Positions 21,001 through 48,000 of a stretch of 64,000 bases of DNA are shown piece by piece (the first letter of the stretch is position 1; each line of letters opens with the position of its first letter). Location of the stretch: NCBI GenBank assembly GCA_963833985.1, contig CAWIAD010000001.1:1376001-1440000 (forward strand), written 5' to 3'. The DNA comes from an uncultured Planctomycetaceae bacterium. GTDB taxonomy: Bacteria; Planctomycetota; Planctomycetia; Isosphaerales; Isosphaeraceae. The position numbers were made by a program.

Positions 21001-24000
21001 AGGTTGATCTGGCGCTGGCCAAAAAGCTGAACGATCCGATCTCCCACGTCCTCCCGGGACATGAGCATGAACAGGACCAGTATGAGCACGAAACCACCGA
21101 CGCCAATAAATTCCAGGGAAGGGCCGACGGCCGCCTGCAAGCGCTCGCGAAACGAGGGCTGCTGAACGACCCGCACGTCCATTGCCTCGGAGCCAGGGAC
21201 TACGGGCGTGTCGAGAGACTTGACCACATCGCCCGCGACTTGCTGTGCTCGGGACAACACAGTGTCATCCGATGGCTTCAGGAAGTTGACCTTCTTCTGG
21301 ATTTCCTTCTGATAGCTGGGTAGTTGATAAGCCAGTATCGAGAGCTGCCGCACGACGACGTAGCCAATTCCGCCGAGACTGCCGAGCGCGAGAGCGACCG
21401 TGAGCAGGACCGCGATGACCCGCGGCACGCGCCGCCGTTCGAAGAACCCCGCAAGCGGCGCCAATGCGAAGCTGAGCAGGACCGCCAGCGCCAGCGGCTT
21501 GAGCACCTCGGCCGCGAGCGACATCGCGGCGATGACCGCCAGGATGAGGAAGGTCACCACGGCTGGGTGGTCCATCGGTGACTTGTGTTGACTGCCCATC
21601 GTGGCGTTCCTATGGAAGTCACCCGGATGTCACAGGTCCGCGAGGAGACCGGCGAACTGTTGCCACTATCCGGCGGCGCTCATCGTCCCCTGATCGCCAG
21701 CCCCGCTATGAGTCCGGCCACCAGGCCGATGCCGAAGGCGGCGACCACCGTCTCCGTCGGGTGGTGGCGGACCAGACTCTCGGCACTATCGTACCGTTCC
21801 CGGACCTGGTCGCTCACCCGATGGGCGTACTGGCCGGCGGCCTCGGCCGCATGTGTGACAGCCGATGAGCCGCGCGCGGTCATCTCGGTGAAGAATGTCT
21901 CGATCGCCTCGCGACCCTCGCCAGTCTTCTGCTGGATCCGGCCGATGAGCTGTTCGATGTTTTTTTCTTGTACCCGGAGGTCGTCCTCGGTCAACTGACT
22001 CCAGCGCTGCCTCGCCTGATCGCAGAGGTAGTTCCACTCTCCCTGTATCCTCTGGGCATTGGTCGCCATGATCGTCGGACTCCTTGGTTGCGGGATCGGC
22101 CGGTGCGATCCCGGCCTCCCTGGTGGATATCGATTCAATCTCAATGAGCCATCGGGGATTCCAAGTCCCTGCGAATGGCTGCTCTCACAGACGACGCCGG
22201 GGGCGCAATCGTGCGCTGGCGCTCGTGACAAGGACGGTCCGGGCCCATGCCAGGTTGAGCCAGAGTTGCTTGCGCGAGCGGCGGAAGCTGTCGAAGCTGT
22301 ACCTGAGCCGCATCCCGGCCAACCCCGCCACCACTCCCCCGAGAACCATCGAGGCACCGGCCATCAGGAGCATCGCCCAACCCTGGTGAATCTTCAGTGC
22401 GGAGGCGATCAGCCAGCCCGCGCCGAGCAGCGCCACCGGAACGCTGCTCACGATCACGGAGAGGCCCGCCACGGTCAAAGCGATGGGAATCGCCGACTTC
22501 CGGGCGGCTTCCCTGAAGTCGACGGCCGCGAGCCTGGCCTGGAGTTCGGCAAGCGACGCGACGTCGTCGACGAACTCGGCGACGCCATCGGGCCCCACCG
22601 AGCTGGAACCGGGCACACCTGCCGCCACGCGACCGTTCACGGACGCCTGATCAACCATCCCAGTACGACTCCTGTGCAAAGCGCGATCCCCAGAGCCTTT
22701 ACGGGTTCTCTGGCCACATAGTCCCGCACCATGTCTCTCCCCTCGGCCAGCCGCTCACGAGCGACAGCCACGTCCTGGTGCGCCATGGCCCGGATTTCTT
22801 CCAGGCCGGGAGTAAACTCCGATTTCGTGCCTTGAACGCGGTCATTCATTGTCTTTTCCTCATAAATGCATGCTTTGATTAAATCCGTTGTTTCGACTCG
22901 GTGTCCTACCGGTCTGCACTGTCCATCCAGCCGCGCCGCTCCTCGGCCGCCGGCGAGACAGCGATCCGGTCCCTGGGCCTGTTCGAGTCACGTTGTTCGA
23001 GCCAGTTCAGCAGGTAATTCTGGCCGGCATGGACGGCCACGGGGAACAGGATGCCCCAGGCGCCGAGCAGCAGATTCTGGACGGTCCTCGATCGTTTCCG
23101 ACCCACGGTGCTGGCTCCCGCGATCGGTTCAACAGCCTGAGCCCCATCTGCCAATGCTGCGGTATCGGCCGAGACCTTCTGATGCCCGCTGGTGTAGACC
23201 AGGAATCCAACTGAAGCCGCCGCGCCCAAGGCGATCCAGGGATACGTCCACGTGTACCTTCCCCAATCAACGACCGCCTCGGCGCCGGCGACCGATTCGC
23301 GCACGTTCGTATGAAGCTCGCGGCGAATCACCGCCATGCGATTGTAGATCTCATCAACGTCATTCGATCCCGCGGCCACGGTTCTCTCCCTGCGAGCTTC
23401 CGGAATCCGGCCTGAAGTTCACGCGAAGTTGACGCCATGAAGATCAAACGGCCGGCCCCCACCTCCTGCCAAAGATCAGCGAGATCACGAACAGGGCCAG
23501 GAAAACGAACAGCAAAATCTTGGCGATCATCCCGAGAGTACCGGCAAGGGCCACGAAGCCCAGGACGCCGGCGAGCAAGGCGAGGATCGCGAATGTGATG
23601 GCATACCCGAGCATGGAAGGCTCTCCTCTCACGGAAAAGGCTGGTGCTTACCGCGAGCTGGGTCCGCCCCAGGCCTCGCAACGAGAATAATGACGATTCG
23701 GGAGTCAAGCGTGACGTACCCCTTGCAGCAGCAGCGGGCAGACCAGATCCAGATTCCTCAAATGCGCCCCAGGAGGACCAGGATCAGGACGATTACCAAG
23801 ACCAGGCCCAGGCCGCCGCTGGGGCCGTAGCCCCAGTTCCGGCTATAGCCCCAGCGCGGGAAGGCACCCAGCAGGAGCAGGATCAAGACAATCAGCAAGA
23901 TCATCCCGAGACTCATCGATTACCCCTTTTGATGGTCTGACATCTCATGGAAGCCGGTGCCTTGAACGCCTCGGCAAGCGAAACAAAAAAGCCGACGTGG

Positions 24001-45000: not shown

Positions 45001-48000
45001 AGGACCTGAGGGTCCTCGACCGCGCCGGTTCTTTTGCTCGCGCTCCGGTCGCTGGGCCGCAAGGACTTCACGAGCGATCCGAAAATGAAGAACGCCCAGT
45101 AGCCGGGCTCGTCCTTGAAGCGCTTCGAGTCCTGGATCGACACCGCCAGGCCGCGGAAGTCACCCATGAAATACCCCTTGCCGCTGGTCGCCTCCCGGGT
45201 GCCGGCGCCGATGAGTTCCTTGATCATCACGGTGCCGTCTCGGAATTCGCCGGTCTTCTCATAGTGAAAGAAGCTCTCCCGGTCCATGTCGACGGCATGG
45301 AACTCGGGGAAAGAGCCCTCGCCACCGTTCATCAGGTCATTGGGTGTACGACGCTCTCCACGGGTGCCCTCGACAGGATACCAGTTCGGGTTCCACCGCG
45401 GCTCGATCCCCCCGGTCGTTGCACCAGCTAATCAATCCGATGCACCAGGGCATCCTCGAACCCTGCTGGACCGGTTTCGCATCGTATCTGGAGCGGGCAT
45501 TCCCCGTGGAATCGCGCATCCGCAAAAGTTTGGCCTCGATGGGAGACGATCGCACGGGCGGAGGCTGTCAACTTGTGGGGCTTGCGCGAAATGTTATAGA
45601 CGGAAAATGCTGCGCGTTGGCGCCGGCAACCATGCGGATTCTGATTTGCTTAGGCTTGCTTAGTGCCGTGGAGCGAGATAGCTTACGGAGACGATTATTC
45701 CCGTTTTACCCGTCATCTCAGGGACCGAATCGTGCGCAAGACTCAGATGGTGACCGATCGAGAGCTCGAGATCATGAAGATCTTGTGGGCTCGGGAGAAG
45801 GCCAGCGTCCGCGAGGTTCAGGACGACCTGAACCGCGACAGCGGACCCGTGGCCTACAGTACGGTGCAGACCTTACTCAATATCATGGAAGAGAAAAAAG
45901 GTCTCGTCCGTCATGTTGTCGAGGGAAGGACGTTCATCTACTTCCCGAAGAAGTCCTCGGAGCGGACCATTCGCGAGCTGACGAAGCGTTTCGTCGATCG
46001 CGTCTTTGACGGTGCGCTCGACCGGGTGATGGTGGCCTTGCTCGACTCGAAGCCGCCGACGCCCGAGGACCTGGAACGTCTTCGTGCCATGATTGACGAG
46101 GCCCAGCGCCAATCATCGCAGAACTTCAACGGACACGCGGAGCTTCATCTCCAGGAGGCTTGACGGGAGTTGACCCTCACCGTCATGCTAATTGAAGTGT
46201 CCGGGGATCCCGGGCCAGGAAGGTGCCTCTCCAGCGCGGCACTGACCTGGCCCTTCGCTTTGACCGCTCTCTCGTCCAGGCGGTTTGAAGGGTCTGTCGG
46301 ACGTCCCTTGGCTCAATTTCACCCGATCATTTTCCCCAGGTAGGGCCACTCAGATGTGGGCCGGCCTCGACCGGTTCGACCGGATTCTCCTGGATGCCAC
46401 GCTTGCAACGACGATCCTGCTCAGCTTTGTGATCCTGCTGGTCTTGCTCTGCCGTCAGCCCAGCCGGCGCCTGGTCGTCGTCCAGGCCGCCACCGTCCTG
46501 ACCATCTTCATCCTTCCTCTGGTGGCCACCAACCCGTTCTCGCCGTCGCGCGTCGGGCTGCGGCTACTTGTTCCGGGGCGGCGCTCCCAACCGATCCGGC
46601 CGTCGCTGCGCCCCTCCGAAGCCGTCCATGCCAGCGCGGGGGACGGTGAGGGAAGCGGTAGAGTTCTTCGGGCCGTGCTGCCAGGCCGGGCCGGAAACGC
46701 GCCGTCCTGGAGCCTCTGGATGGCGCGAGCCTGCGGGCTGGCTTACCTGGCGGGTGTTGCGGCCGGAATGGGCTGGACGGCCCTGGGGTTCTGGGGAATC
46801 CGCCGGCTGATTCACGACTCCAGCGCGCCGCGACCGGAGACCAGCGCCTTCTTTCATTCGCTGATTCCCTTGCAGGGCGAGAACTTGCCGGCTCCCGAAC
46901 TGCGGGTCGCGACCAGGCTGCGACGACCGATCCTGGCTGGGCTCTTCCGCCCCTGTATCTTGATACCCGCGGATTATGACCAGGCGGGATTCGACCGCGA
47001 ATCTCTCAGGCTGATTTTCTTGCATGAGCTGGCCCATGCCGGCCAGTCCGATACGTACTCCAGCGCCGCGGCGAGCCTGGCACAGTGTCTCTGGTTCTTC
47101 CATCCCTTTGTGTGGTGGCTGCGCGCTCAGTTGCGGGTGGACCAGGAATTCCTGGCGGACGAGCGAGTCGTCCATCACACAGGTTCGCCGTCGGGATATG
47201 CAACCCGGCTGGTTTCCCTGGCAGCCGGCTCGGAAGCGGGTGCTCCCTCGGCGCCGAGCGGCAATCAGGCCGGGTCCCGCGCCATGTCTCCGCTCCGTGA
47301 CGCCTCCCCCAGCCCGCTCATGCAGCGGGTTGTGATGCTGCTCCACTGTCCGTTTCCGGTTGAATCAAAGGCTCCGAGGTGGTGGACCTTGTCCGCTCCC
47401 TTTGGTGTTGTGGGGCTAGCAATACTGAGCATCGGCACCAGCACGGCACTGCTGAAGACCTCGTCCCTCGCATCGCGGCCGTCCCGGTCTGAACTCGAAT
47501 CGGGCGTTTTCCAGGTGGGTCAATTCATTGCGCCGCCTTGGAAGCGAAAGTCCACAGGGCGAAGCGTGCCCTACGTCTTACCCCTTGCCCTGCCACCGCG
47601 ATTCGAGCTGACAGTCAAGATCGAGGGATCGCCCTCCGCCCTGTCGCGGATGTACCTGGCAGGGCTGTCACTGGAACCCCCCCTCTCACTCTCTCTCGAA
47701 TCCGGGCCGCCGCCAACGCCCGAGGATGCCGCCGCCGGCTGGCACCTGGTCAAAGTTGCCCGCCAGTCCGATCAGATCGCCATCACCGTCGATACGCGCA
47801 CCTGGCACATGGAAGCCACCAGGGAACGACTCTCGGAATGGCTGTCGATCGAGCCGCCACCCGCCGAGACTGTTGTGCTACGCGACTTACAGGTCATCTG
47901 GTGAGACGATCACGCCCTTTCCTGCCATTCTGGCAAGACAACCTGACAAGACAGCATCTCCTGTCAAAATGACATCAAGCCGACGAATCATGCGCATTCC

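Follow-up and report, generated by a model that had tools for sequence, protein, structure and literature searches.

The 64-kb stretch of planctomycete DNA analysed here (the window) carries six copies of a promoter-driven RNA element that very probably serves as an attenuating leader. Its linkage to genes for MpsC, a DUF2294 protein, is the new result of this work. Our overall reading, a terminator/antiterminator attenuator operated by MpsC, is one to which we give an even chance.

Leader copies and their genes in the window

A covariance model built from the six window copies (R1) scores these ~108-nt elements, c1 to c6, at 98.6-129.4 bits, with E values of 3e-24 to 5e-33 against the 10.16-Mb genome, and thus far above chance. 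All six lie at the positions given in an initial annotation of this DNA. That annotation had counted 12 copies genome-wide; R1 yields 10 full ones (94.6-129.4 bits), the four outside the window being on contig C2 at 1323081-1322969 (-), 1345322-1345207 (-), 1346073-1346184 (+) and 3615701-3615590 (-), while the other eight matches at E<=0.01 are the same terminators read on the reverse strand. The element reached the gathering score of no Rfam family (best sub-threshold hit RT-12, 25.2 versus 44.2 bits), and it is new, as proposed, insofar as Rfam yields no catalogued family.

The core module is found at c4 (39072..39185, plus strand, 124.2 bits), with a promoter (CTTGCT...TACAGT) at 38985..39015 (+) and a terminator at 39132-39173 (+) backed by a U tract. 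Divergent from it, 221 nt off the leader, is an MpsC-A gene (38462..38851, minus strand, 129 bits) with a GTG start codon followed by KTQGEIE. The first gene after c4 encodes MpsC-B (39229..39648, plus strand, 83.4 bits), a DUF2294 paralog that shares 20-26% identity with MpsC-A; the same operon contains a 75-aa CsrA paralog (39665..39892, plus strand), which keeps L2, L4, R6, K7 and the VHR motif, and a DUF1328 small membrane protein (39977..40153, plus strand). Leader c2 (28062..28175, plus strand, 118.2 bits; promoter 27980-28008, plus strand) is likewise divergent from an MpsC-A (DUF2294) gene (27448..27837, minus strand, 113.5 bits) that starts 225 nt off the leader, and precedes a B12/radical-SAM gene (ATG at 28217, end at 29797, plus strand). 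The c2 and c4 cassettes are conserved from the promoter to the ribosome-binding site, and their downstream genes are unrelated.

Leader c1 (23979..24092, minus strand, 129.4 bits), separated from its promoter (24181-24153, minus strand) by a 5' hairpin, is followed by genes for DUF3309 (23916-23758) and DUF1328 (23632-23444). Behind c3 (34720..34833, plus strand, 121.6 bits; promoter 34633-34659, plus strand) come a remnant ORF (34879-35088), in which only about the first 13 MpsC-B codons are kept, and a CsbD gene (35104-35346); a divergent MpsC-A fragment (34389..34595, minus strand) matches the profile only at positions 1-34. Leader c5 (44119..44231, minus strand, 113.6 bits; promoter 44320-44293, minus strand) precedes a GAF-HisKA-HATPase-receiver hybrid kinase gene (ATG at 44051, end at 42210, minus strand). 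Between c5 and c6 lies a degenerate MpsC-A copy (44425..44892, plus strand) with a stop codon in place of the start and a C terminus 48 aa longer. Segmental duplication has spread the copies, and it has left partial MpsC-A and MpsC-B sequences at c3 as well as the decayed MpsC-A at c5/c6. The most diverged copy, c6 (44928..45041, plus strand, 98.6 bits; promoter 44802-44829, plus strand), has no convincing same-strand gene in the ~628 nt behind it, where a convergent P460-like remnant is found (45311-45068, minus strand). A downstream gene on the element's strand, claimed for 10/10 genomic copies, is therefore present for 9/10.

A Pfam survey of downstream same-strand ORFs (matches in 86/115) agrees with the earlier description of stress-type genes. 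The hits comprise MpsC (15), hybrid kinases (9), Band_7 (8), CsbD (7), YflT (7), DUF1328 (6), DUF3309 (4), methyltransferases (4), desaturases (3), HPr (3), C92 peptidases (3), CsrA (2), Transgly_assoc (2), BON (2) and 11 single occurrences. In genomes with 1-3 copies, MpsC-A stands beside the leader, and behind it comes an operon that includes MpsC-B, Band_7, YflT, CsbD, DUF1328 and PPK2.

Structure of the leader and its putative antiterminator

The cassette runs from a promoter through a 5' hairpin, an A-rich linker and the segment GUCGGAYGAC to H1, a rod-like hairpin with four conserved purine-rich internal loops, and ends in a 20-bp terminator with a U tract. A sigma-70-type promoter (TTGCTA-like/GACAAT-like) is present in 110/115 units, with 55-69 nt between the end of the -10 box and the element in 101 of these 110; the proposal that the element is a 5' leader is borne out by this promoter of its own. 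The 5' hairpin varies in sequence, and the 5' segment folds with a mean z of -2.0. We aligned 114 distinct copies from 48 sources, in which 96.8% of the cells pair, versus 31.8-49.9% when partners are slid, and 22/35 pairs change on both sides, a count matched by 0/500 shuffles. An alignment of 76 rows from loci picked by the MpsC-A protein alone gave 95.9% pairing cells and two-sided changes in 26/35 pairs, including 12/15 in H1. H1 and the terminator, the bulged hairpin and intrinsic terminator of the initial annotation, are thus backed by strong covariation. Throughout the phylum, hardly any change is seen in the internal loops or at the junction nucleotides; G7 and G8 are kept in 114/114 copies and A9 in 108/114.

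The initial annotation had further proposed that CCGAC pairs alternatively with the 5' GUCGG, forming the helix that we call P1. This pairing is almost always available (96.9% of P1 cells in the 114 copies) and forms in simulated nascent RNA: for transcripts ending within the terminator loop, P1 pairs with a mean probability of 0.80, and 82/101 copies lie above 0.5. Compensatory double changes, however, occur neither among the 114 copies nor among 70 independent ones, in which only one-sided changes are seen. In the independent set P1 has 5/5 pairs in 54 copies and 4/5 in 16; position 6:64 carries CG in 64 copies and UG in the other 6, at position 4 G gives way to A, C or U in 13/70, uncompensated, and a C5-A mismatch occurs once. 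Among the 114 copies, U5 is opposed by G in 62 and by A in 49, and this partner covaries with the terminator 3' arm (GC 60, AU 49). In a diverged variant of the leader, described below, the equivalent pairing is by inspection only 3-5 bp long and inconsistent. A GUCGG:CCGRC antiterminator is therefore only compatible with the sequence data.

Distribution and linkage to MpsC-A

The leader is more widespread than first reported (26/61 Isosphaeraceae and 2/100 other Planctomycetota), being present in 41/101 genomes and 26/53 genera of the family and in 5/150 other genomes of the phylum, and a single genome can hold 37 matches or more. Scanning public genomes with a sequence pattern retrieved at least 129 stretches, and the matches listed come from MAGs labelled Isosphaeraceae, Gemmataceae, Pirellulales, Thermoguttaceae, Planctomycetaceae, Phycisphaerae/Tepidisphaeraceae and, once, 'delta proteobacterium'. 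Presence is patchy even inside one genus, and near-identical copies occur across differently labelled families, an identity that may derive partly from recent horizontal spread; together with the segmental duplication of copies, this patchiness keeps the earlier caveat of horizontal spread valid.

The connection to MpsC/DUF2294 proved much stronger than first stated. Among 80 metagenome loci chosen solely by MpsC-A protein similarity, the leader adjoins the MpsC-A gene in 62; 61 leaders are divergent, at a median distance of 205 nt, and 8 lie behind the gene on its own strand (median 122 nt). Of the 18 loci with no leader, 10 offer under 300 nt of sequence upstream. Presence and absence of leader and MpsC are concordant in 92/101 family genomes (both 37, neither 55, leader only 4, MpsC only 5). 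The four leader-only genomes have weak matches or fragmented assemblies. Of 99 divergent upstream ORFs picked heuristically, 24 encode MpsC-A. In the phylum sample, MpsC occurs in 4/5 leader-positive genomes versus 11/150 overall, and 6/7 of the seemingly 'MpsC-only' genomes have a diverged leader variant right beside the MpsC gene: behind MpsC-A in five (G106, G239, G172, G232, G131) and, in G209, as a leader-like match just upstream of the sole MpsC gene on a short contig. In these other Planctomycetota the variant stands behind MpsC-A and before PEPCK and ArgG; it also precedes a NuoE-like gene. Its promoters are near-consensus (TTGACA/TATAAT), which places control in the leader. Co-occurrence and synteny could nonetheless reflect a single inherited island, and related genomes are not independent.

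MpsC is assigned to its family by PF10057 only. Neither the median pI of MpsC-A (6.6), a PDB sequence search, which returned no relatives, nor fold comparison gave signs of nucleic-acid binding, and we know of no report of RNA binding by MpsC. The fold matches are weak (TRAPP Bet3, H-NOX, V4R and YslB; Foldseek E ~0.02, Z 5-5.7; best Z of any match only 7.0) and, if anything, would hint at ligand-binding folds. Orthologs of the core-operon CsrA paralog (at least 57% identity) occur in 22/41 leader-positive and 0/60 leader-negative genomes. All 22 have at least five covariance-model matches and the 19 others at most five; only where copies are numerous does the paralog belong to the core operon.

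Proposed mechanism and competing explanations

In our proposal, downstream genes are controlled by transcription attenuation through a cis-acting 5' leader whose conserved core is the element. By default the terminator would fold and a short RNA of ~170 nt would be released; read-through into the stress gene would occur when the 5' (G)UCGG is kept paired with CCGR(C) at the base of the terminator 5' arm. The resulting P1 helix of 4-5 bp would close H1, and a factor would be needed to hold it against the terminator. MpsC-A, encoded directly beside a leader copy, is the likeliest candidate; that it operates the leader directly we regard as nearly a coin toss, and its target could also be DNA, at the conserved promoter, rather than the RNA. 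MpsC-B within the controlled operon, joined in large regulons by the CsrA paralog, may provide feedback or modulation, and the 5' hairpin of free sequence would be stabilising. In this family, copies of the module now precede many general-stress genes, which would together form a regulon.

Protein-dependent terminator/antiterminator leaders are known from HutP-hut, BglG/SacY/LicT-RAT, PyrR-pyr and ANTAR targets. As in these, an alternative fold can sequester the terminator 5' arm, and the candidate regulator gene is adjacent (MpsC-A) or inside the operon, with MpsC-B as its first gene. Unlike them, the leader shows by inspection no UAG triplet repeats, RAT-like hairpin or paired hexaloops, MpsC falls outside all of these protein families, and the many matches per genome span a general-stress regulon. 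Alternative sigma factors govern such regulons in Bacillus (SigB) and Alphaproteobacteria (EcfG), and the set found here shares with these CsbD, YflT, DUF1328, BON, Transgly_assoc, PP2C and partner-switching parts; the common element in our case is a sigma-70-like promoter plus a terminator leader, not a special promoter alone. Compared by description, a further counterpart is the YjbJ motif of Streptococcus, a weak candidate riboswitch that precedes a csbD-like gene, with 40 representatives in one genus and a two-hairpin architecture, for which its authors also weigh a protein factor (PMC11109978). Both are uncharacterised hairpin-and-terminator leaders before a CsbD-family general-stress gene, but the description of the YjbJ motif gives neither a link to MpsC nor a relation to Planctomycetota (PMC11109978).

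The main rival, an unlikely one in our judgement, is a riboswitch for a small molecule or ion, with P1 and H1 as a ~60-nt aptamer. Its ligand would be connected with stress (second messenger, ion or CO2/bicarbonate-related chemistry) and, once bound, would keep the terminator 5' arm occupied, making an ON switch; in that case MpsC would not do the sensing but be regulated itself or play an accessory part. Multi-copy, terminator-coupled ON riboswitches such as c-di-GMP-I and guanidine-I/ykkC indeed have this architecture, a small structured domain whose short P1 overlaps the terminator, repeated before diverse genes; among these here are kinases and PP2C phosphatases, which recalls the second-messenger riboswitches. 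The near-invariant loops and junctions, P1 formation in simulated nascent RNA and the ligand-binding rather than RNA-binding hints from the MpsC-A fold also favour it, and the variant with consensus promoters before PEPCK, ArgG and the NuoE-like gene would fit a metabolic signal. Yet a riboswitch needs no adjacent protein gene, and MpsC-A, outside the controlled unit, is a near-obligate neighbour at the protein-selected loci, unlike in those classes; moreover, the downstream genes indicate no single ligand, none of the Rfam aptamer classes matches, and the stems are conserved in sequence, not just in pairing.

The fixed partnership with MpsC-A, diverged variant included, also argues for a trans factor and against the view that duplication and horizontal transfer have spread a constitutive promoter-terminator cassette (or insulator) that would dampen or insulate expression or stabilise mRNA with no sensing. 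We consider this improbable: the conservation of c2 and c4 before unrelated genes, the MpsC debris at c3 and c5/c6, the patchiness within a genus, the near-identical copies across families and the orphan c6 suit it, but a plain terminator cassette requires neither the many two-sided changes that H1 pairing survives nor invariant unpaired purines, and a strong promoter and strong terminator before a gene are sensible only if the terminator can be overcome. CsrA sites present GGA in a loop, and GUC-GGAY-GAC could form such a short hairpin, to which the core-operon paralog might bind, blocking or allowing P1, or terminated leaders might act as a CsrA sponge in trans. The conserved G7, G8 and A9, the intact RNA-binding residues of the paralog behind MpsC-B and its confinement to leader-positive genomes are in line with this; we nevertheless hold it to be quite improbable, as each element has one GGA, the variant has GGC instead, the 19 leader-positive genomes with no paralog keep the leader GGA, and the CsrA family, found in 101/101 genomes (3-17 matches each), is therefore uninformative by its presence. 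Least probable, and very much so, is an RNA thermosensor in which the marginal P1 and mismatch-rich rod hold only in the cold, so that cold (or low water activity) would bring read-through. A short P1 and an H1 broken by four internal loops do resemble RNA thermometers, and the regulated genes include the three desaturases, an ice-binding-like protein and desiccation-type genes; melting, however, does not require invariant loop sequence, and the MpsC-A linkage and the variant before PEPCK/ArgG would go unexplained.

Because this undescribed leader precedes many stress genes and lies nearly always beside MpsC, it probably represents a new genetic switch and a first clue to the role of MpsC.

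Copies and anatomy of the leader cassette

At the six places in the window where the initial annotation had located a leader RNA element, reading and alignment revealed six clearly homologous stretches of ~108 nt each (copies c1 to c6). A covariance model built from these six copies (R1) and searched against the 10.16-Mb genome returned exactly 10 full-length copies, six in the window and four on contig 2 (94.6-129.4 bits, E 5e-23 to 5e-33), whereas 12 had been counted before; the nhmmer result was consistent with ten, and the other eight R1 matches at E ≤ 0.01 were the same terminators read on the reverse strand. 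No family in Rfam 15 matched the element at or above its gathering score. The strongest sub-threshold match on an element was RT-12 (25.2 bits versus a threshold of 44.2, E 1.6), and the sole Rfam match in the window was a tRNA (61858-61928). The leader is a real, strongly non-random and uncatalogued feature; the mechanism proposed for it, that of a terminator/antiterminator leader, is of a type already known, and the family itself matches nothing in Rfam. The openly accessible literature searched yielded no description of such a planctomycete or CsbD/DUF1328 leader. The nearest described item is the Streptococcus YjbJ motif, located before a csbD-like gene (PMC11109978).

The conserved unit proved larger than the 106 nt initially assigned to it, as 110 of 115 distinct units, collected in the window and at related loci, include a sigma-70-like promoter. 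This promoter is laid out as an A-rich stretch, then AATTCACTTGCTATTT, then a -10 resembling GACAAT, and the distance from the end of the -10 to the element is 55-69 nt in 101 of the 110 promoter-bearing units. Within this interval the sequence varies and a hairpin fold is kept (mean z -2.0, below -2 in 49 of 102), with an A-rich linker between this 5' hairpin and the core. The core comprises, in order, GUCGGAYGAC, a rod-like bulged hairpin (H1) and a G+C-rich 20-bp terminator followed by a U tract whose columns are at least 96% T. H1 is built from the helices ACU/AGU, URA/UYG, GGGC/GCYC and CCCGG/CCGGG, between which lie the conserved loops AGA/ACG, A/G and AA/GG. In c2-c4, conservation extends to the ribosome-binding site despite the different genes that follow.

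Two further candidates were discarded. Loose-regex matches to the cassette promoter numbered 15 in the genome, 7 of them at leaders and the other 8 devoid of the A-rich/AATTCA context; a leader peptide starting at the AUG of H1 needs G at column 21, which is found in 64 of 114 copies, and its in-frame stop is not conserved. Back-to-back with the -35 of c4 we also noted a promoter-like GTGACA-17-TACGAT (38985-38957, minus strand) aimed at the gene of MpsC-A, one of two DUF2294 protein types encoded near leaders, which suggests that c4 and MpsC-A have divergent promoters with a common boundary. Tandem leader copies occur ahead of the same YflT gene in one locus (L055:2170-2282 and 2462-2576, both minus strand), and two similar pairs in L212 and L214. 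Three copies lie within ~4.5 kb of a single contig (L111-L113) from a metagenome-assembled genome titled 'delta proteobacterium', which means either that the bin is mislabelled or that the leader has been transferred beyond the phylum.

RNA structure, proposed switch and downstream genes

Standard pairs occupy 96.8% of cells in the alignment of 114 distinct copies, compared with 31.8-49.9% when partners are slid. Two-sided changes were evident in 22 of 35 pairs, and the observed values were reached by none of 500 shuffles. In the 20-bp terminator stem, 14 pairs change on both sides. An RNA-independent set drew on 80 metagenome loci picked through the similarity of their MpsC-A proteins; with three duplicates excluded, 77 loci remained and gave 76 covariance-model matches. 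These were 95.9% paired, with two-sided changes in 26 of 35 pairs, including 12 of the 15 in H1. Pairing and two-sided changes in both sets, one of them chosen without reference to RNA, evidence that H1 and the terminator are real RNA structures.

The proposed antiterminator helix (P1), in which the 5' GUCGG is able to pair with CCGRC at the base of the terminator 5' arm, is compatible with 96.9% of cells in the family set. Its U5 faces G in 62 copies and A in 49, and the same partner covaries with the terminator 3' arm (GC in 60, AU in 49), which makes U the one base fitting both states. Among 70 protein-selected copies, all five P1 pairs can form in 54 and four in 16; C6 changes to U only (six times), still paired with G, and positions 7 and 8 are essentially constant. 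Against the helix count the free, uncompensated variation of position 4, one copy with C5 facing A, and the absence of two-sided compensatory changes. A sixth P1 pair (3:90) is possible in the family set and fails once wider sets are taken, because A or G then occupies position 3. A local CUCG/CGAG hairpin in the 3' half of H1 was similarly rejected: in 46 of 114 copies column 70 is C, which would yield C-A there, and in H1 this column has column 25 as its partner. Simulated RNA ending inside the terminator loop gave a mean P1 pairing probability of 0.80, and 82 of 101 copies exceeded 0.5; the minimum-energy fold of the full-length RNA always contained the terminator, at ~25 kcal/mol lower. 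An ON switch under kinetic control would need just such a design, and the leader may work in this manner.

A same-strand gene follows nine of the 10 genome copies. In the window, c1 precedes DUF3309 and DUF1328 genes, c2 a B12/radical-SAM gene, c3 CsbD, c4 MpsC-B (the second DUF2294 type) with CsrA and DUF1328, and c5 a GAF hybrid kinase, while c6 lacks a same-strand gene for ~628 nt and faces a remnant of a cytochrome-P460-like gene. The start lies on the same strand less than 100 nt from the U tract in 72 of 115 heuristic same-strand downstream ORF picks, 86 of which have Pfam matches: MpsC (15), HisKA-HATPase hybrid kinases (9), Band_7 (8), CsbD (7), YflT (7), DUF1328 (6), DUF3309 (4), methyltransferases (4), fatty-acid desaturases (3), HPr (3), C92 peptidases (3), CsrA (2), Transgly_assoc (2), BON (2) and 11 singles (radical SAM, G6PD, PAS-SpoIIE, ice-binding-like and others). 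A stand-alone small RNA gene would likewise have its own promoter and terminator, as is the case here, but would be independent of the next gene, and the 72 close same-strand starts speak against that; only c6 looks orphaned. Collectively, we regard the element as very probably an attenuating leader. The leaders of the window sit in a stress island (19758-48603) that also holds genes for Pmp3, DUF2267, a YtxH-like protein, a P-type ATPase, a transglutaminase-like protein, an alpha-amylase-family member, a PP2C phosphatase, BlaI/BlaR1 and Hsp20.

Several copies bear traces of their origin. On one flank of c3 (34595-34389) lies a 5' fragment of MpsC-A, covering profile positions 1-34, and on the other (34879-35088) the start of MpsC-B, which runs for ~13 codons before unrelated sequence and CsbD. 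The MpsC-A copy between c5 and c6 (44425-44892, plus strand) has a stop at its expected start (…SP*KEGEIEAAIC) and a 48-aa C-terminal extension, and is probably decaying. Besides, c2 and c4 have a common untranslated region that reaches as far as the start codons of their different genes. The c3 fragments, the degenerate MpsC-A and this shared region indicate that the core module, the one with c4, was copied by segmental duplication and then decayed, and do not point to transposition. The P460-like fragment opposite c6 (45311-45068, minus strand) spans profile positions 20-98 of 125, and its open frame (45332-44478) continues antisense through c6 and the MpsC copy; this gene looks to have been disrupted when the module arrived.

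Linkage of the leader to MpsC and CsrA

MpsC-A (~126 aa; 113-130 bits to PF10057, cut-off 23) is 63-86% identical across loci and is encoded outside the controlled unit, mostly divergently. MpsC-B (75-89 bits to the same profile and cut-off) is 20-26% identical to MpsC-A and usually comes first among the genes that follow the leader. In the 101 family genomes, 37 have both leader and MpsC, four the leader alone, five MpsC alone and 55 neither, so that presence and absence agree in 92, with a distribution that is patchy even inside the genus of the window; the four leader-only genomes comprise two weak matches and two fragmented or 54%-complete assemblies. Among 150 other genomes of the phylum, the leader is present in five, MpsC in 11 and both in four. 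The least biased test started from MpsC-A similarity alone: of 80 metagenome loci picked in this way, 62 have the leader adjoining MpsC-A. Divergent leader matches numbered 61, their median distance to the gene start being 205 nt, and same-strand downstream matches eight, with a median of 122 nt; in 10 of the 18 loci without leader, the upstream flank is shorter than 300 nt. Genomes with one to three copies keep MpsC-A beside one leader that heads a long operon (MpsC-B, Band_7, YflT, CsbD, DUF1328 and PPK2). Judged by these small systems, the numerous cassettes with one gene each in the present genome seem to have arisen by expansion.

Seven 'MpsC-only' genomes of other Planctomycetota were re-searched with the covariance model unfiltered, and in six of them a diverged leader (variant 2; 13.8-29 bits) adjoins the MpsC gene. 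In five genomes (G106, G239, G172, G232 and G131), variant 2 comes directly after the MpsC-A gene (L215:1923-2016; L216:2756-2656, minus strand; L217:1844-1941; L218:2311-2409; L219:1903-2001), and in G209 it immediately precedes the sole MpsC gene on a short contig (L221:1216-1118, minus strand). It is made up of GGCAGAUYG..GGGGG, a covarying hairpin, CUGCY, GAUAGGCCGGC and a terminator, and is followed by genes for an MpsC-B-like protein plus PEPCK, PEPCK, ArgG or a NuoE-like protein. Its promoters are near consensus (TTGACA-N17-TATAAT), which would place the regulation in the RNA.

A CsrA paralog of 75 aa, which keeps the canonical residues at the N terminus and of the VHR motif, is encoded after MpsC-B. 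Its orthologs (at least 57% identity), almost always directly after MpsC-B, occur in 22 of 41 leader-positive versus 0 of 60 leader-negative genomes. Covariance-model matches, counted per genome among the best 37 scored and including some on the reverse strand, number at least five in all 22 genomes with the paralog and at most five in the other 19. Targets of CsrA expose GGA in a short hairpin's loop, and most have several such sites. The main form of the leader (variant 1) has a single GGA site, its bases conserved in 114, 114 and 108 of 114 copies, which would suit CsrA. Since genomes without the paralog still keep this GGA, and variant 2 has GGC in its place, CsrA appears to be an add-on of large regulons and not the core operator. 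The CsrA family is much expanded overall: all 101 of the 101 family genomes have Pfam matches to it, 3-17 in each, and that of the window has 10.

Candidate operators and significance

Signatures of the RNAs recognized in HutP-, BglG- and PyrR-type antitermination are UAG repeats, the RAT and dual hexaloops. The present system resembles these in the linkage of a regulator gene to the leader (62 of 80 loci, 92 of 101 genomes and 6 of 7 variant cases), but its leader differs from their targets in having a consensus with one UAG, an apical loop of 5 nt that varies, and no hexaloop pair. The AlphaFold model of MpsC-A (pLDDT 89.5) consists of a helix, two strands, two helices and two strands. Foldseek against the PDB gave no match for it at E ≤ 0.001, with weak matches, at best E ~0.02, to TRAPP Bet3/TPC6, H-NOX and YslB; a wide VIA fold search reached Z 7.0 with unrelated proteins, and 5-5.7 with V4R and TRAPP. 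Sequence and profile searches identified no PDB relative of MpsC-A, the ESM Atlas offered no usable neighbour, and NCBIfam holds no family for either MpsC type. Median pI values of 6.6 (MpsC-A) and 5.3 (MpsC-B) give no hint of RNA binding, and the literature searched on DUF2294/MpsC contained nothing relevant, the name MpsC being mostly used for unrelated things. As nothing found indicates RNA binding, the case for MpsC as the operator rests on genome context.

Weighed against this, the main rival is a riboswitch in which the leader itself would sense a ligand. The two-sided changes of H1 and its invariant internal loops are what a conserved, structured aptamer would have; gene context names no ligand. 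We consider this reading unlikely. MpsC-A is the most likely operator of the leader, a proposal to which we give close to an even chance. Slightly more tentatively, MpsC/DUF2294 could be a new family of RNA-binding antiterminators, and MpsC-A plus leader an ancient portable switch, attached to PEPCK-type genes elsewhere and to a stress regulon here. Under such a scheme, the pair would act in other lineages as a switch before carbon/CO2-handling enzymes, e.g., PEPCK, and in this planctomycete family the module would have multiplied, joined by MpsC-B and its own dedicated CsrA, until it held master control over dozens of operons that make up a general-stress regulon.

If these proposals hold, the leader would represent an uncatalogued family of regulatory RNAs with hundreds of members in a poorly studied phylum, and a general-stress/desiccation regulon would be co-ordinated without an obvious dedicated promoter type. 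DUF2294/MpsC, a widespread family known from its neighbourhood alone, would gain its first testable function. Should MpsC be the operator, it would define a new class of antitermination proteins; if it is not, the leader would define a new class of riboswitch.
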